Shown here piece after piece: positions 1-5,991 of a stretch of 5,991 nt of DNA. The DNA lies in IMG/VR virus record IMGVR_UViG_2698536454_000005, positions 1 to 5,991 of that record; one strand, written 5' to 3'. Both the position numbers and the translations under genes were made by a program. Position 1 is the first letter of the stretch, and each line of letters opens with the position of its first letter. The notes under the pieces were generated by a model. The model saw only the letters and a program-made list of their open reading frames with translations. It had not been told where the DNA came from and searched no databases. This stretch comes from a virus. Lineage: Duplodnaviria > Heunggongvirae > Uroviricota > Caudoviricetes.

Positions 1-1
1 G

Positions 2-659
<658 letters not shown>

Positions 660-662
660 TCC

Positions 663-995
663 ATGCATCGTATAGACACGAAAACCGCGCAGAAGGATAA
701 GTTCGGCGCGGGTAAGAACGGTTTTACCCGTGGTAACCCCCAGACCGGCACACCTGCCACCGATCTGGATGATGACTACTTTGACATGTTGCAGGAAGAA
801 CTCTGCAGCGTGGTGGAGGCATCCGGTGCCAGCCTGGAGAAGGGGCGGCATGACCAGCTGCTTACCGCGCTTCGTGCGCTGCTGTTAAGCCGCAAGAATC
901 CGTTTGGCGATATCAAATCTGATGGCACGGTGAAAACGGCTCTCGAAAACCTTGGTTTGGGAGAAGATCAGTTCAACACTATTGTTTCAGAATAA
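663..995 (+). CDS. Tail-fibre protein, constant N-terminal part (Sc-like), ending in a 9-codon stub after a crossover-site copy; truncated in this arrangement
   Basis: ATG 663 is preceded by GGAG with 6-nt spacing. The N-terminus [21 protein letters not shown] is what I recall from Mu-like/e14-like fibre N-termini. Codons ENLGLGE (946-966) are encoded by the crossover core that also begins both variable cassettes. After the core the frame runs only DQFNTIVSE then TAA. Confidence 0.75.
940..965 (+). other. Site A: 26-bp invertase crossover site inside the fibre constant-part codons (ctctcgaaaacc tt ggtttgggagaa)
   Basis: Near-palindromic 12+2+12 layout. The right half plus next base is identical to 2510-2522 and to the reverse complement of 5912-5924. 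Central dinucleotide tt at 952-953. Same orientation as site B. Confidence 0.6.
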
Positions 996-1046
996 TCACT
1001 TAACCCCATTTATGTCGGTTGAGGTTATAAGTCACGGAGACCAGAT

Positions 1047-1391
1047 ATGTCCTTAAAGTATGCACATGAAAAATTTCATACTGCAGTACTTACTCTTGCG
1101 GGCCATGGAAGTATTCAAGAACGCTTGATTAATTCGTATGTTTTTAGCCTTGGGCATCTTAAAACAGCCGATGATATTCCAAATGCCTTACAAAGCAGGT
1201 TCGATGAATTATGTAAGGAACTGACTAAGTTTGATGCCACTGGCGATGAGGGGCGAGTTCAAGCAACAGTATCAAAACTTAACGATTTCGAGATCAATAA
1301 ACTGATCGAAGATATTGTCAGTCTTAACGATGATATTTGCATGAAATTGGCTCTGACGGATGAGACTTACCAAGACATACACCAAAGTTAA
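1047..1391 (+). CDS. Hypothetical small acidic protein (114 aa), AT-rich cargo gene of unknown function
   Basis: ATG 1047 preceded by GGAG 1036-1039 with 7-nt spacing. A hand-counted 100-bp sample at 1047-1146 is about 35% GC, against about 55% for 701-800. Hand count gives 19 Asp+Glu versus 11 Lys+Arg. No motif I can assign. Confidence 0.65.
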   Translation: MSLKYAHEKFHTAVLTLAGHGSIQERLINSYVFSLGHLKTADDIPNALQSRFDELCKELTKFDATGDEGRVQATVSKLNDFEINKLIEDIVSLNDDICMKLALTDETYQDIHQS

Positions 1392-1418
1392 TTGATTAAA
1401 TTCAAAAAGTTAACGTTC

Positions 1419-1441
1419 AACCAGCCAGTTTTTGGCTGGTT
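1419..1441. terminator. Putative bidirectional intrinsic terminator between the convergent 114-aa and 70-aa genes
   Basis: Perfect 9-bp stem aaccagcca (1419-1427) / tggctggtt (1433-1441) with a 5-nt loop. T-rich tract follows on the plus strand (1442-1450). On the minus strand it is followed by an A/T-rich tract containing a T5 run (complement of 1403-1407). Confidence 0.5.
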
Positions 1442-1475
1442 TATTGTCTTATAATATTCTTGCTCGAATGATGCA

Positions 1476-1688
1476 CTATTTATGATGTAATCCGGACATC
1501 AGTTCATGGACAAGATTATCTCTTTCATTGTGTTGCAACCGTAAATGCATAGCAAAAAGGTGAGCACTATCCTCATTCCTCTTCAAGCCATGCTGTTCAA
1601 GATACCCGAAAAAACGGCTTCTCTTATCCGCTATTTCCTGAGTCTGACGTGCAACATTTACCAAATTTTCTAGCGTTTTTCTTGGCAT
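1476..1688 (-). CDS. Hypothetical small His-rich protein (70 aa), cargo gene downstream of the invertase on the same strand
   Basis: ATG is the complement of 1686-1688. A perfect AGGAGG Shine-Dalgarno (complement of 1696-1701) lies 7 nt upstream. AT-rich. Seven His, no Cys. No recognisable motif. Confidence 0.65.
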   Translation of the reverse strand: MPRKTLENLVNVARQTQEIADKRSRFFGYLEQHGLKRNEDSAHLFAMHLRLQHNERDNLVHELMSGLHHK

Positions 1689-1886
1689 ACTATTTCCTCC
1701 TGAAATTGTTGTAATTCACTAGGATATTCATTTTAATTTGTATCATTTAGTACCAAAACCGCTATCAATTAACAAAGCCATCGTTGTGGTTTACCTTGCA
1801 GCCGTTTTTTGTCATTGACTCTATGTGAAAATAATGAATCATCATGAGATTGGCTCACACGTTCTTGAATTCGACGAGCTGTGTCT

Positions 1887-2441
1887 TTATTTATCTCCTG
1901 CCGGAAACCTCTGATACAAAGTCGATACGCCAACATCATAGATAATCGCAACTTTCTGGCGCGGAACTCCTGATGCAATTAATCGTCCGGCTTGTGCCCA
2001 TTGTTCTGGTGTAAGTTTGGGACGACGTCCACCAATTCGTCCCTGTGCGCGAGCAGCTTCCAGTCCAGCTTTTGTTCGTTCAACAATCAGTTCTCGTTCC
2101 ATTTCAGCCAGGGCCCCCATCACATGAAAGAAAAAGCGCCCCATTGGGGTACTGGTATCAATTGAATCCGTCAGACTACGAAAGTTGATGCCTCGTTCGC
2201 GCAACTCCTCCACCAGCACGACAAGATGCCGCATACTGCGCCCCAGTCGGTCCAGTTTCCAGACCACCAGCGTATCGCCTGCCGATAATGTCCTGAGCAG
2301 TTTTTTCAGTCCCGGCCTTTCGGACTTTGTACCGCTTATCTTGTCTTCAAAAATCAGCTCGCATCCTGCACAGTTCAGCGCATTACGTTGTAGATCTGTG
2401 TTCTGGTCATTTGTTGACACACGTACATAGCCAATAAGCAT
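1887..2441 (-). CDS. pin: Site-specific serine DNA invertase, Hin/Gin/Cin/Pin family
   Basis: Starting from the MLIGYVRVSTNDQ methionine (complement of 2439-2441) gives 184 aa. Catalytic serine lies in the RVSTNDQ context near the N-terminus. Conserved blocks LVVWKLDRLGRS and GRFFFHVMGALAEMERELI are present, with a C-terminal helix-turn-helix (GVSTLYQRFP). AGGGAG sits 7 nt upstream. The ORF-track start at 2477 adds 12 residues encoded by the inverted repeat and is probably not the real start. Confidence 0.93.
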   Translation of the reverse strand: MLIGYVRVSTNDQNTDLQRNALNCAGCELIFEDKISGTKSERPGLKKLLRTLSAGDTLVVWKLDRLGRSMRHLVVLVEELRERGINFRSLTDSIDTSTPMGRFFFHVMGALAEMERELIVERTKAGLEAARAQGRIGGRRPKLTPEQWAQAGRLIASGVPRQKVAIIYDVGVSTLYQRFPAGDK

Positions 2442-2442
2442 G

Positions 2443-2522
2443 GTAGATCTCCCTGACAAAAGCAGGAATGATGCCATTTGCTCGTTATTTCTGCATTTTC
2501 ATAAACGTTGGTTTGGGAGAAG
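2443..2522. repeat. Left inverted repeat (80 bp) of the invertible segment; contains the invertase RBS and site B
   Basis: 2443-2522 is the exact reverse complement of 5912-5991, compared base by base. Identity ends at 2523/5911. Confidence 0.9.
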
Positions 2523-2962
2523 CGGCAAAACGAAATGTGGGCAACGGGGAAAACCAAATCCCTGATATGTCTTTCTGGACGGTTACTGGTGGCAATGGAA
2601 ATTTTGTGATTCGTCAACCTGACGGGCTAATCATTCAGATGGTTACTGTAAGTATAAGCGGTCCAGTGGCGATGAATGGAATGACTGATAATGCTTATGC
2701 CATTACAGGTTCTAATAAGTCTTATATTGCCACAGCCACATTGCCCTTTGTATTTCCTAATAAGGTGCTGGGCGTTATCCCTCTGGTATCAACAACAGCT
2801 TATGGTGGTGTATCCAGTAATATTACAGGTTCATACGCGACGGCGGTTTGTTCTTTTGCCGCTGTCAGGGGGAATAATACGATTGTGTTCAAAGTCGACA
2901 AACCACTGAATGCAGCCTTTCCTTCAGATACCAGCGTCTCAGCGTTAATCATTGGACGGTAA
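2468..2962 (+). CDS. Tail-fibre C-terminal variable cassette Sv1; the first 18 codons are encoded by the inverted repeat and the cassette is not joined to the constant part in this arrangement
   Basis: The frame is continuous with the GLGE codons of the crossover core and unique sequence starts at 2523. Gly/Thr/Ser/Asn/Val-rich 146-aa tip. Stop TAA 2960-2962 is followed 2 nt later by the ATG of a tail-fibre assembly gene. Confidence 0.65.
   Translation: MMPFARYFCIFINVGLGEAAKRNVGNGENQIPDMSFWTVTGGNGNFVIRQPDGLIIQMVTVSISGPVAMNGMTDNAYAITGSNKSYIATATLPFVFPNKVLGVIPLVSTTAYGGVSSNITGSYATAVCSFAAVRGNNTIVFKVDKPLNAAFPSDTSVSALIIGR
2496..2521 (+). other. Site B: 26-bp crossover site (ttttcataaacg tt ggtttgggagaa)
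   Basis: 12+2+12 layout with central tt at 2508-2509. Resembles hix/gix-type sites as I recall them. Lies at the inner end of the left inverted repeat. Confidence 0.7.
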
Positions 2963-3978
2963 GAATGAACTCAGTATTCTTTTCACCCGCAAGTAAAAGT
3001 TTTTATCTGCAAGAATTGTTTCCAGAATATGAGGATGCGGGAACGCTTCCTGATGATGTTATTGAAATTACCAGAGAAACATATGAGCAATTTCTTGGGC
3101 TGCATCCAGAAGGGAAAGAAATTGGCGCTGACAGTTCAGGACGGCCAATATGGATTAATTCCCCGCCGCCTTCAAAAGAGGATGAGATGCTGGCGGCTGA
3201 AATGAAAAAGATATCTTTGGTTTCAGAAGTCAATACCTACATCAATACCCATCAGTGGCCTGGCAAAGCTGCTATTGGTCGTCTGAAAGGTTACGAGCTG
3301 GAACAATATAATTTATGGCTGGATTATCTGGACGCACTGGAACTGGTTGATACCTCCAGTGCTCCAGATATTGAATGGCCTACGCCTCCGGTAGTTCAGG
3401 CCAGATGACATCCGGCGCGGTGCTGGTATCTGTTGCAGTCACCGCGTCAATGTAATCCAGCACAGCGTTAAGCCGGGTTGTTTCTGCCTGCGTCAGCTTC
3501 CGCCCGGCCTGCAATTTCAGCTGAATCAGACTAATGGAAGCCATAGCAGCATCAATCAGTGACTGGCGCCGTACTTCTGCCGCGTCTACTGCGGCGTTAT
3601 GCTGTGCCTCAGTATCGGTCACCCATTTCTCACCATCCCATTTATCGTATGACGTTAACGGGGCGATAGTGGTTGTATTTTCAGGGTAATCACCCGGAAC
3701 TGTGATTTCTTTTGATTCTCCTGTTTCGGTGCTATAGACGATTTCACCGCGATGGTCTGGCACATATTCCCATGAGTTAAAATCTGCAGAACGGCAAATT
3801 GCATAACCAGCTTTATATGAGCCAGGAGCATCTAAACAGGAACATGCCGGGATACCAACACCCACAGCAAGATATTCAGTTGATGTGGAAATATATTCCC
3901 GTGTTTCACCATCATAATTATAAACGGTAATGTCTCCGGCCTTTGTGGCGATGAGTTCATTATTTAATACAGCTTTAC
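2508..3978. repeat. Tandem direct repeat, copy 1 (1471 bp)
   Basis: Matches 3980-5450 at an offset of 1472. Supported by identical translations of three ORF pairs and by reading the boundary regions and one ~470-nt internal stretch directly. Base 3979 matches neither flank. Confidence 0.85.
2965..3408 (+). CDS. Tail-fibre assembly chaperone (Tfa; Mu U / P2 G family) partnered with Sv1
   Basis: C-terminus DTSSAPDIEWPTPP matches the conserved Tfa C-terminal motif (compare APDVIWPELP in the other Tfa here). Coupled immediately downstream of Sv1. Confidence 0.8.
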   Translation: MNSVFFSPASKSFYLQELFPEYEDAGTLPDDVIEITRETYEQFLGLHPEGKEIGADSSGRPIWINSPPPSKEDEMLAAEMKKISLVSEVNTYINTHQWPGKAAIGRLKGYELEQYNLWLDYLDALELVDTSSAPDIEWPTPPVVQAR

Positions 3979-4000
3979 ATTGGTTTGGGAGAAGCGGCAA
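3380..4000 (-). CDS. Tail-fibre assembly chaperone (Tfa) copy whose native ATG start is replaced by the duplication junction; possibly non-functional
   Basis: Identical to the 4852-5457 product from KAVLNNELIATK onward. The native MIS start is absent and the only in-frame start is TTG at 4000, inside the crossover core. Its 3' end overlaps the convergent Tfa gene by 29 bp (3380-3408). Confidence 0.45.
   Translation of the reverse strand: MPLLPNQCKAVLNNELIATKAGDITVYNYDGETREYISTSTEYLAVGVGIPACSCLDAPGSYKAGYAICRSADFNSWEYVPDHRGEIVYSTETGESKEITVPGDYPENTTTIAPLTSYDKWDGEKWVTDTEAQHNAAVDAAEVRRQSLIDAAMASISLIQLKLQAGRKLTQAETTRLNAVLDYIDAVTATDTSTAPDVIWPELPEA
3968..3993 (+). other. Site C: hybrid junction carrying a crossover core half-site (tacagctttaca tt ggtttgggagaa)
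   Basis: The right half and central tt are identical to sites A and B. The left half is the start region of the Tfa gene and does not resemble a site half. Probably a recombination product junction rather than a functional full site. Confidence 0.5.
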
Positions 4001-4434
4001 AACGAAATGTGGGCAACGGGGAAAACCAAATCCCTGATATGTCTTTCTGGACGGTTACTGGTGGCAATGGAAATTTTGTGATTCGTCAACCTGACGGGCT
4101 AATCATTCAGATGGTTACTGTAAGTATAAGCGGTCCAGTGGCGATGAATGGAATGACTGATAATGCTTATGCCATTACAGGTTCTAATAAGTCTTATATT
4201 GCCACAGCCACATTGCCCTTTGTATTTCCTAATAAGGTGCTGGGCGTTATCCCTCTGGTATCAACAACAGCTTATGGTGGTGTATCCAGTAATATTACAG
4301 GTTCATACGCGACGGCGGTTTGTTCTTTTGCCGCTGTCAGGGGGAATAATACGATTGTGTTCAAAGTCGACAAACCACTGAATGCAGCCTTTCCTTCAGA
4401 TACCAGCGTCTCAGCGTTAATCATTGGACGGTAA
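3985..4434 (+). CDS. Duplicate Sv1 variable cassette with no start codon; expressible only if fused to the constant part at site C
   Basis: Translation identical to Sv1 from GEAAKRNVG onward. The frame is closed upstream by TGA at 3952-3954 and has no ATG. Begins at the crossover core. Confidence 0.5.
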   Translation: MGEAAKRNVGNGENQIPDMSFWTVTGGNGNFVIRQPDGLIIQMVTVSISGPVAMNGMTDNAYAITGSNKSYIATATLPFVFPNKVLGVIPLVSTTAYGGVSSNITGSYATAVCSFAAVRGNNTIVFKVDKPLNAAFPSDTSVSALIIGR

Positions 4435-4436
4435 GA

Positions 4437-4880
4437 ATGAACTCAGTATTCTTTTCACCCGCAAGTAAAAGTTTTTATCTGCAAGAATTGTTTCCAGAAT
4501 ATGAGGATGCGGGAACGCTTCCTGATGATGTTATTGAAATTACCAGAGAAACATATGAGCAATTTCTTGGGCTGCATCCAGAAGGGAAAGAAATTGGCGC
4601 TGACAGTTCAGGACGGCCAATATGGATTAATTCCCCGCCGCCTTCAAAAGAGGATGAGATGCTGGCGGCTGAAATGAAAAAGATATCTTTGGTTTCAGAA
4701 GTCAATACCTACATCAATACCCATCAGTGGCCTGGCAAAGCTGCTATTGGTCGTCTGAAAGGTTACGAGCTGGAACAATATAATTTATGGCTGGATTATC
4801 TGGACGCACTGGAACTGGTTGATACCTCCAGTGCTCCAGATATTGAATGGCCTACGCCTCCGGTAGTTCAGGCCAGATGA
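4437..4880 (+). CDS. Tail-fibre assembly chaperone (Tfa), duplicate of 2965-3408
   Basis: Translation identical to the 2965-3408 product. Confidence 0.75.
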   Translation: MNSVFFSPASKSFYLQELFPEYEDAGTLPDDVIEITRETYEQFLGLHPEGKEIGADSSGRPIWINSPPPSKEDEMLAAEMKKISLVSEVNTYINTHQWPGKAAIGRLKGYELEQYNLWLDYLDALELVDTSSAPDIEWPTPPVVQAR

Positions 4881-5457
4881 CATCCGGCGCGGTGCTGGTA
4901 TCTGTTGCAGTCACCGCGTCAATGTAATCCAGCACAGCGTTAAGCCGGGTTGTTTCTGCCTGCGTCAGCTTCCGCCCGGCCTGCAATTTCAGCTGAATCA
5001 GACTAATGGAAGCCATAGCAGCATCAATCAGTGACTGGCGCCGTACTTCTGCCGCGTCTACTGCGGCGTTATGCTGTGCCTCAGTATCGGTCACCCATTT
5101 CTCACCATCCCATTTATCGTATGACGTTAACGGGGCGATAGTGGTTGTATTTTCAGGGTAATCACCCGGAACTGTGATTTCTTTTGATTCTCCTGTTTCG
5201 GTGCTATAGACGATTTCACCGCGATGGTCTGGCACATATTCCCATGAGTTAAAATCTGCAGAACGGCAAATTGCATAACCAGCTTTATATGAGCCAGGAG
5301 CATCTAAACAGGAACATGCCGGGATACCAACACCCACAGCAAGATATTCAGTTGATGTGGAAATATATTCCCGTGTTTCACCATCATAATTATAAACGGT
5401 AATGTCTCCGGCCTTTGTGGCGATGAGTTCATTATTTAATACAGCTTTACTTATCAT
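4852..5457 (-). CDS. Tail-fibre assembly chaperone (Tfa; TfaE / Mu U' type) partnered with Sv2
   Basis: ATG (complement of 5455-5457) overlaps the Sv2 stop in an ATGA arrangement. C-terminus TSTAPDVIWPELPEA carries the conserved Tfa motif. Confidence 0.85.
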   Translation of the reverse strand: MISKAVLNNELIATKAGDITVYNYDGETREYISTSTEYLAVGVGIPACSCLDAPGSYKAGYAICRSADFNSWEYVPDHRGEIVYSTETGESKEITVPGDYPENTTTIAPLTSYDKWDGEKWVTDTEAQHNAAVDAAEVRRQSLIDAAMASISLIQLKLQAGRKLTQAETTRLNAVLDYIDAVTATDTSTAPDVIWPELPEA

Positions 5458-5966
5458 GCAGCCCTCACAATATAATTAAAGGCGATGTTACGGGAGCGGG
5501 TTTCAGATGCTGTGCGAACTGAGCGAGATGCGTCGAATGTCCAGTTATAAGCGCCATAACCCTCAATAATTTCGGCTTCCTTTAGACCTGTAGATAATAC
5601 TTGCCCATGTTGACTAAATGGCCCTGAACTAAGTACGTCTCTAAAAAGCTGGGTACGCCCAAAAGAACCAACAATATTCTGAATTGCATCATTCTGTGCA
5701 GATAATAAGTTACGACCAGAGTCAATCCCGCGCCCATCATCCCAGCCACGAATAAATTCACCGCGTAAATCTGGTAATTTTAATGTTGGGTAAGCCTTTG
5801 CCAGATTTGGGTACTTTTCAGAAGAAAATACTGCTCCGTTACATTTTAGCCACCCCGTTGGCGGAGTGGCGGAAGGCCACGGAACAGGCACACCAACGGG
5901 TAATGCCGAACCTTCTCCCAAACCAACGTTTATGAAAATGCAGAAATAACGAGCAAATGGCATCAT
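5454..5966 (-). CDS. Tail-fibre C-terminal variable cassette Sv2 (receptor-binding tip of the P2 H / Mu S / Stf type); first 18 codons encoded by the inverted repeat
   Basis: Carries conserved tail-fibre tip motifs: PWPSATPPTGWLKCNGA, YPNLAKAYP, LPDLRGEFIRGWDDGRGID and the C-terminal NIAFNYIVRAA. In frame with GLGE of the crossover core. Confidence 0.85.
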   Translation of the reverse strand: MMPFARYFCIFINVGLGEGSALPVGVPVPWPSATPPTGWLKCNGAVFSSEKYPNLAKAYPTLKLPDLRGEFIRGWDDGRGIDSGRNLLSAQNDAIQNIVGSFGRTQLFRDVLSSGPFSQHGQVLSTGLKEAEIIEGYGAYNWTFDASRSVRTASETRSRNIAFNYIVRAA

Positions 5967-5991
5967 TCCTGCTTTTGTCAGGGAGATCTAC
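5912..5991. repeat. Right inverted repeat (80 bp, cut by the window end)
   Basis: Exact reverse complement of 2443-2522. May extend beyond position 5991. Confidence 0.9.
5913..5938 (+). other. Site D: 26-bp crossover site (ttctcccaaacc aa cgtttatgaaaa), inverted relative to A, B and C
   Basis: Reverse complement of site B, with central aa at 5925-5926. Confidence 0.7.

Follow-up and report, generated by a model that had tools for sequence, protein, structure and literature searches.

Serine DNA invertases of the Hin/Gin/Pin class disfavour deletion. They act through an enhancer-dependent (Fis) invertasome in which the crossover sites are aligned for inversion (PMC3798978), and inversion of the e14 P segment, driven by PinQ, has been tied to phage defence (PMC12529663). 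Temperate phages and their satellites are also known to carry variable defence hotspots, as reported for P2 and P4 (Rousset et al., 2022, PMC9122126). In the e14 prophage of Escherichia coli K-12, mcrA sits between the invertase gene pinE and a displaced icd fragment. Here, we have analyzed a stretch of 5,991 nucleotides (nt) from a Caudoviricetes virus (IMG/VR record IMGVR_UViG_2698536454_000005, positions 1 to 5,991; hereafter the window), which comprises the tail-fibre end of an E. coli prophage of the e14/SfV type whose baseplate is Mu-like. The analysis concerns positions 996-1886, where the original prediction had seen an AT-rich island of two small genes, here called orf114 and orf70, lying between the constant part of the tail-fibre gene and the invertase gene pin. 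This stretch is compositionally foreign accessory DNA without a tail or recombination function. It is a displaced three-gene region from which the largest gene has been cut off, and the fibre gene is truncated as well.

Natural position of the cargo region

The island was compared by megablast with 5,426 complete E. coli genomes. It could be identified in 46 of them at 99.3-100% identity, and in all 46 the match ended at window positions 965-968. The gene order was the same in every copy: ssrA (transfer-messenger RNA), a gene for a protein of 343 amino acids (aa), orf114, orf70 on the opposite strand, pinE, the invertible segment, the fibre constant part, ymfQ and the baseplate genes. The 343-aa gene and orf114 run in the same direction with a gap of 51 bp, orf70 is convergent to them, and a terminator is found only after orf114. 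In addition, ten distinct contexts were fetched through exact matches to the orf70 protein, and in all ten of them pin, orf70, orf114 and the 343-aa gene had stayed together in one block. The block was intact even where an integrase-bearing or P4-like element separated it from ssrA, and it was also kept where pin was truncated beside a lambdoid fibre or where the rest of the prophage had been lost. Either a 36-nt fragment of the ssrA 3' end or the ssrA-distal spacer accompanied it, which places the cargo at the attachment-site end, past the invertase and not within the invertible DNA. Gene order across these genomes shows the natural form, namely a three-gene accessory region at the attachment-site end of an e14/SfV-type prophage or remnant, just past pinE.

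These results changed the picture of the locus in two ways. First, a home between the constant part of the fibre gene and the invertase, as had been proposed, was seen in the window alone; every other copy lay beyond the invertase, at the prophage end. The prophage-end position typical of such cargo (a moron) was found in all natural copies and was altered in the window by a 3-kb insert. The natural island is not cargo of an invertible segment, because it lies outside that segment; in the window it comes to lie between crossover site A and the inverted site D only through the insert. Second, the two genes are indeed present, but they do not form a self-contained unit: they belong to a three-gene region that here lacks its largest member.

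The slot beside the invertase varies among close relatives, in line with the accessory slot proposed in the original prediction, and holds mcrA, a GIY-YIG nuclease or the cargo described here. For example, strains A38, 1504D004 and SL124 carry a LEM-3-like GIY-YIG nuclease in this slot, and their pin and fibre modules are ~98% identical. A separate observation concerns E. coli 042 (L071, positions 2388-2889), in which pin is frameshifted and a long tail fibre of lambdoid type adjoins the block, all three cargo genes being intact. In this lineage the cargo has been retained while pin decays.

Insert, junctions and crossover sites in the window

Positions 1-966 and 3995-5991 of the window matched CP180607 (strain PS1Thumoskin9) and the remnant L007 at 100% identity. 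L007 is truncated by an IS3-family insertion sequence (IS) and keeps only a partial ymfQ (ymfQ'), the fibre switch, pin and the cargo. When the insert was added to L007, the window differed from it by one base at each junction and was otherwise 100% identical. In order, the insert (Table 1) contains the tail of the 343-aa gene, orf114, orf70, pin, site B, variable fibre part 1, tfa and the 5' end of tfaE, and its flanks are an 18-bp duplication of site A, AC[C/A]TTGGTTTGGGAGAAG. As a consequence, the stop codon at 995, which had been taken for that of the fibre gene, belongs to the unrelated 343-aa gene, whose end continues the reading frame of the fibre; PHROG tail-fibre families cover only residues 1-102 of this open reading frame (ORF).

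Both ends of the insert are illegitimate junctions, designated J1 and J2 (Table 1). J1 sits 14 nt 3' of the crossover dinucleotide and is thus not the product of a Pin crossover. We considered a Pin-mediated origin for both junctions and rejected it, since the breakpoints are off the crossover dinucleotide and the flanks are unlike half-sites. The junction string could not be found in the genome_contigs or metagenome_contigs collections, the 110-aa fibre fusion product of J1 had no exact match in an index of 153 billion genes, and an exact look-up of the 206-aa fusion ORF arising from J2 found none. Furthermore, positions 2505-3968 repeat positions 3977-5440 in direct orientation at 100% identity over 1.46 kb (variable fibre part 1, tfa and most of tfaE), and this duplication was present in no complete E. 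coli genome.

Direct copies of the crossover core, sites A and B, exist as the original prediction had described, and they are joined by a third direct copy (site C) and an inverted one (site D); all four share the core TTGGTTTGGGAGAAG. The joint at site B also occurs in the natural genome H56. Inversion between A and D, the only inverted site, would give back a fibre of full length in frame (...GLGE-GSALPVG...; 663-995 with 5454-5966), flipping the island and pin along with it. A perfect inverted repeat of 80 nt (2443-2522 and 5912-5991) is composed of the pin upstream region and the crossover site, and the window stops 2 nt short of what would be a second, oppositely oriented pin start codon. 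This end point suggests a contig or graph boundary at a repeat.

The same region breaks assemblies elsewhere. RefSeq lists two 'circular plasmids' for strain Z1323HEC0010: NZ_CP148395.1 (L068, 2,637 bp), which consists of pinE and the three cargo genes, and NZ_CP148396.1 (L070, 1,830 bp), which is the invertible fibre segment; the chromosome of this strain has no copy of the island. The larger record was examined as a possible excised circle and was rejected because the same assembly contains the companion record of the invertible segment. Both 'plasmids' are almost certainly assembly artefacts due to invertible DNA. The placement between fibre and invertase is unique to the window and probably a rearrangement or an assembly chimera; in either case it is not a trait of this prophage family.

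It should be considered whether the insert is a real and very recent inverted duplication mediated by microhomology. In such a case pin and the cargo would reside in a segment invertible between A and D, and both the transcription of orf114 from the fibre operon and the completion of the fibre would be phase-variable. Several features fit this idea: A and D are inverted, so that their recombination restores the in-frame fibre (GLGE-GSALP...) and flips 967-5911 with the island; both junctions show 2-nt microhomology, as in template-switch events; and the true Pin joint at site B means that the source contained both inversion states. They are opposed by the complete identity of the duplicated 1.46 kb, by junctions that are recorded nowhere, by the demonstrable tendency of the region to break assemblies and by an IS-truncated remnant that has no tail for the fibre to sit on. 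We consider this alternative rather unlikely.

With regard to the remaining layout, the locus is a prophage remnant of ~5 kb, like e14, in which the IS3 end replaces all DNA upstream of ymfQ. Positions 2284-3249 of L007 equal window 1-966 at 100% identity, and transposase genes (HTH_Tnp_1 and rve) lie directly upstream there. The rest of the window, beyond the features listed in Table 1, holds alternative fibre C-termini and tail-fibre assembly genes.

Table 1. Positions of genes, crossover sites and junctions in the window
Feature	Position	Strand	Details
IS3-family element, terminal sequence	1-95		Stands in place of prophage DNA 5' of ymfQ; in most related genomes the match starts at 96
ymfQ, 5'-truncated Mu Gp48-like baseplate/tail gene	48-659	+	Pfam Phage_Mu_Gp48, E 1e-26; annotated ymfQ in relatives
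Chimeric ORF	663-995	+	Fibre constant N-terminal part (codons 1-101) followed by the 9 terminal codons (DQFNTIVSE) and the stop codon of the 343-aa gene
Crossover site A, fibre constant side	947-966	+	AAACC TT GGTTTGGGAGAAG; repeat family D2, inverted pair I2
Junction J1, illegitimate	966/967		Fibre/site A to 3' end of the 343-aa gene; 2-nt microhomology, one odd base
Insert relative to natural remnant	967-3994		3,028 bp; flipped-state copy, contiguous
Remnant of the 343-aa membrane-protein cargo gene	967-995	+	PHROG 6191 family; 9 codons and stop; identical to the 3' end of L001 8000-9031
orf114	1047-1391	+	114 aa; uncurated family of ~100-aa all-helical proteins
Terminator-like hairpin between convergent orf114 and orf70	1419-1441		10-bp stem, then T-run on + strand
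orf70	1476-1688	-	70 aa; orphan, predicted helical hairpin
Pin-side boundary of the variable cargo slot	1858-1886		GIY-YIG-carrying relatives regain homology at 1858, 1862 or 1886
pin, pinE-type serine DNA invertase	1887-2441	-	Resolvase and HTH_7, E 1.6e-51; PHROG DNA invertase, E 2.5e-97; annotated pinE
Crossover site B, flipped-state Pin joint	2503-2522	+	Pin-proximal half-site and variable part 1
Crossover site C, direct copy	3975-3994		
Junction J2, illegitimate	3978/3979		5' end of tfaE to site C; 2-nt microhomology, one odd base
Crossover site D	5912-5931	-	Sole copy inverted relative to A, B and C; inverted pairs I1-I3

The three cargo proteins and their relatives

The GC (guanine plus cytosine) content of positions 996-1886 was 37.8%, compared with 57.2% in ymfQ, 55.3% in the fibre constant part and 49.7% in pinE, and the hand estimate given earlier (~35% against ~55% in the flanking late genes) was close to these values. 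The 343-aa gene had 39.6% and the tail genes 54-57%; GC at third codon positions was 0.34-0.37 in the island and 0.62 in ymfQ. Foreign acquisition was therefore borne out as far as composition is concerned, but the synteny comparison pointed to the prophage end and not to the place seen in the window. The two small genes do have the strong ribosome-binding sites that had been claimed for them: the Shine-Dalgarno sequences, read directly, are GGAG 7-8 nt ahead of the ATG of orf114 and AGGAGG 8 nt ahead of that of orf70. Shuffles matched for composition gave P ~0.03 for an ORF of 114 codons. The island region was also scanned for sigma-70 promoters, and no convincing one was found for either gene; its sole sigma-70-like match (TTGACT-16-AATCAT, 1815-1842, plus strand; one found against 3.4 expected) runs antisense into the 3' end of pin. 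An Rfam scan of the whole window revealed no RNA family inside the island, and an isrC-like match at 1-31 was weak (E 0.035, under the gathering score). The hairpin between the two genes is assumed to be a bidirectional terminator common to both. On the minus strand this stem precedes TTGAACGTTAACTTTTTGAA, a stretch rich in T but without a T-run comparable to that of the plus strand.

No family in Pfam, PHROG, PADLOC or NCBIfam matched orf114 or orf70, in agreement with the earlier statement that neither resembles a tail or recombination protein. In PADLOC-DB 2.0 likewise, none of the three cargo proteins (orf114, orf70 and the 343-aa protein) had a match, and no modification gene of the Mu mom type was seen among Pfam, NCBIfam or PHROG matches of the island proteins. 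A word-index search with orf114 and orf70 returned only near-identical or frameshifted copies, profile and sequence searches of PDB returned nothing, and tblastn against 50,697 phage records detected no relative of either protein. Among plasmids, tblastn found orf114 relatives only from Deinococcus and Methylobacterium.

We then have, for orf114, an exhaustive HMMER scan over 1.84 billion representatives. It yielded 540 homologues at E<=1e-3 and 40 at E<=1e-10, which were ~100 aa long and aligned over their full length with 31-48% identity; the 40 strongest span residues 1-100 of orf114. The presence of 540 full-length homologues indicates that orf114 is a real gene. An alignment of 71 sequences (A1) backs its start codon and defines the family motif Y-x-W/H-E-K-F ... 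R-L-x-x-A ... D-L-P ... G-x-E-G-x-x-x-A-T, of which orf114 keeps R26, P45, E68, G69 and A73, with S in place of the usual A at position 30. As judged from sequence similarity, orf114 is shown to be a genuine member of a broad uncharacterised family, whose hosts include Enterobacterales, Alphaproteobacteria, Bacteroidota, Deinococcus and cyanobacteria. The 71 relatives, searched member by member and by profile, matched no Pfam, PHROG, NCBIfam or PDB family, and PADLOC produced only three families with one member each (E 0.006-0.0075). Modelling of orf114 from its single sequence with AlphaFold2 (AF2) was poor (predicted local distance difference test, pLDDT, 52).

The genomic contexts of the orf114 family were heterogeneous, leaning to mobile and conflict DNA. 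At individual loci a relative directly followed a caspase (Peptidase_C14), was close to a TIR_2 or a MUG113/T5orf172 protein, or formed an overlapping operon with a Schlafen/AlbA_2 (SLFN) protein. Longer relatives were fused to Mrr_cat, to a HicB N-domain (a cluster on 68 contigs) or to RHH; no HicA gene was found alongside the HicB-fusion member. All four family matches in IMG/VR were at the ends of prophage contigs. Convergent umuD/umuC-like genes were found beside orf114 relatives at six to eight loci. This arrangement was noticed at predicted prophage or island ends in L060-L063 (from IMG/VR), L029, L031 and L025. A conserved partner was sought and none emerged, and the recurrent umuD/umuC-like neighbours look positional.

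The 343-aa protein, a member of PHROG 6191 (function unknown; 76 clusters across Enterobacterales), contains a hydrophobic segment in its central part. In two Yersinia lambdoid prophages (L017 and L018, 5001-6026 in both), homologues with 47% identity are located directly 3' of CI on the same strand, ahead of the N gene region, that is, in the rex position. Other homologues were found at prophage ends, inside a tail module or in islands, which is the pattern of a single-gene moron, and never with orf114 or orf70 relatives alongside. In the Enterobacter locus L019, a homologue of the 343-aa protein is flanked by the small pair of an S24 peptidase and a 79-aa protein that recurs beside orf114 relatives. 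A defence-type role, one of those allowed by the original prediction, is plausible from the contexts of orf114 relatives and from the rex slot of the 343-aa homologues, but neither orf114 nor orf70 matched a known defence, anti-defence or modification family.

The status of orf70 as a gene rests on its ribosome-binding site, its RefSeq annotation and a confident hairpin prediction, in which AF2 placed two long helices from the single sequence (pLDDT 82.5). Foldseek searches with this hairpin gave only non-significant matches, and tblastn against phages and plasmids found no orf70 relative apart from itself. The frame was unbroken in every one of the 46 genomes and across thousands of index blocks.

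Explanations weighed and comparable systems

On the basis of these results, positions 996-1886 are the invertase-proximal two-thirds of an AT-rich, horizontally acquired three-gene moron region. In the window, a 3.0-kb inverted-duplication insert with two non-Pin junctions of the microhomology type places this region between the constant part of the fibre gene and pin, removing the 343-aa gene save for nine codons and truncating the fibre. In the intact region, the 343-aa gene and orf114 may constitute one lysogen-expressed unit, with the 343-aa membrane protein as a candidate effector of a phage-exclusion-type function and orf114 as its putative small helical accessory, either regulator, neutraliser or sensor; orf70 would be a lineage-specific helical-hairpin protein read in the direction of pin. 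We have high confidence in the structural account, in which foreign prophage-end cargo has been displaced and truncated in the window. The functional account, which makes it lysogen-expressed cargo of the exclusion type, is put forward tentatively and is open to considerable doubt. The explanation as a whole, a truncated prophage-end conflict cargo displaced by an insert, seems reasonably probable to us. Because orf114 has lost its upstream gene and presumed promoter and lies behind a truncated fibre gene in an IS-truncated remnant, the two-gene module in the window is probably inactive.

Several observations weigh against this explanation. No known-family match gives a function to any of the three proteins. 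The orf114 and 343-aa families occur together only in the E. coli block, which lends no co-evolution support to their pairing. Defence-type neighbours amount to a handful among ~30 loci of the orf114 family, and many relatives stand alone beside umuDC or partition genes. The insert may have arisen very recently by template switching, or it may be an assembly chimera of the two inversion states, and this choice counts here as well. As for orf70, composition-matched shuffles gave P ~0.45 for an ORF of 70 codons, so its length alone is uninformative; its relatives form only clusters of at least 95% identity, with no divergent homologues; and its single-nucleotide polymorphisms comprise one synonymous and one non-synonymous change, too few for a selection test.

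The non-significant length of orf70, its missing divergent homologues and the balance of its polymorphisms also favour an alternative in which orf114 is the only gene and the 70-codon frame arose by chance in an AT-rich spacer, or is 3' untranslated or regulatory DNA of pin. Such a view has to contend with the consensus AGGAGG at ideal spacing, the pLDDT of 82.5 from a single sequence, the frame kept intact through all the genomes and index blocks, and the lack of any Rfam match in the island region, and we regard it as unlikely.

Another possibility is that orf114 and orf70 are a regulatory or toxin-antitoxin-like pair of their own that does not depend on the 343-aa gene, in which case the island in the window would still be functional. 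The two genes are always adjacent, both encode small helical proteins, and orf114 relatives are fused to the antitoxin-type HicB-N and RHH domains. However, the genes converge on an intervening terminator and form no operon, none of the orf114 relatives elsewhere has an orf70-like neighbour, neither protein matched a toxin or antitoxin family, and HicA is missing next to the HicB-fusion member. The arrangement and the lack of a family match also set the pair apart from type II toxin-antitoxin systems, whose two small genes are co-directional, usually overlap and share an operon; the HicB-N and RHH fusions are confined to distant relatives. This alternative thus appears improbable. Finally, that a complete two-gene island lies naturally between the fibre constant part and the invertase and moves with the invertase through the direct sites A and B, as the original prediction had allowed, is suggested by the window's order of fibre, site A, island, pin and site B with A and B as direct repeats, but is highly improbable given that no other copy has the order fibre, island, invertase, that J1 lies off the crossover dinucleotide with nine codons of the 343-aa gene fused to the fibre and is absent from all collections searched, that the Fis/enhancer invertasome aligns sites for inversion (PMC3798978), and that the sole 'circular' record of pin and cargo is an artefact accompanied by an invertible-segment 'plasmid'. 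The window is accordingly unsuited as an argument for invertase-coupled mobility of cargo, its placement being unique and its largest gene gone.

Returning to the displaced prophage-end cargo, its kind is already known, and by the tests made it is outside known defence, toxin-antitoxin and modification families. The only lead worth pursuing is the orf114 family. If the explanation above is right, orf114 would give entry to an uncurated family of more than 500 sequence clusters that accompanies defence-type effectors. More speculatively, and with little expectation that it holds in full, orf114 might be a widespread, unrecognised small helical module of several bacterial phyla acting as regulator, neutraliser or sensor partner of caspase, TIR, Schlafen/AlbA_2, Mrr and membrane effectors, and might together with the 343-aa protein make up a new two-component phage-exclusion system in an invertase-adjacent hotspot of e14-like prophages.

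Comparison with described systems places the locus more precisely. As in the P2/P4 hotspots, a fixed site between conserved phage genes holds differing foreign genes in relatives, known nucleases included; the phages differ, since a Mu-like tail of the e14/SfV group is involved here, and none of the three proteins matches PADLOC. Under the preferred explanation, the invertase-adjacent end of e14/SfV-type prophages would be a further variable hotspot for E. coli conflict genes. Lambda rexAB has a positional parallel in the 343-aa homologues of the two lambdoid prophages from Yersinia, where they directly follow CI in the same orientation; there is no sequence similarity to RexA or RexB, and the window keeps only nine codons of the 343-aa gene. 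With regard to the Gin/Cin/Pin/Min systems (Mu G, P1 C and e14 P segments), the invertase and the sites TTCTCCCAAACC-AA-CGTTTATGAAAA of the window are of the same class and switch fibre C-termini, whereas the island is not inversion machinery and its natural copies are outside the invertible DNA. Unlike a Min-like multi-site system, the window has extra sites that come from duplication. Compared with the pinE-mcrA end of e14, the cargo here is unrelated to McrA and contains no HNH or other known domain, comprises three genes against one, adjoins ssrA instead of icd in its carriers, and in the window is displaced and truncated. Both loci share the order of ymfQ, fibre constant part, invertible fibre/assembly segment and pinE, with the cargo between pinE and the attachment site.

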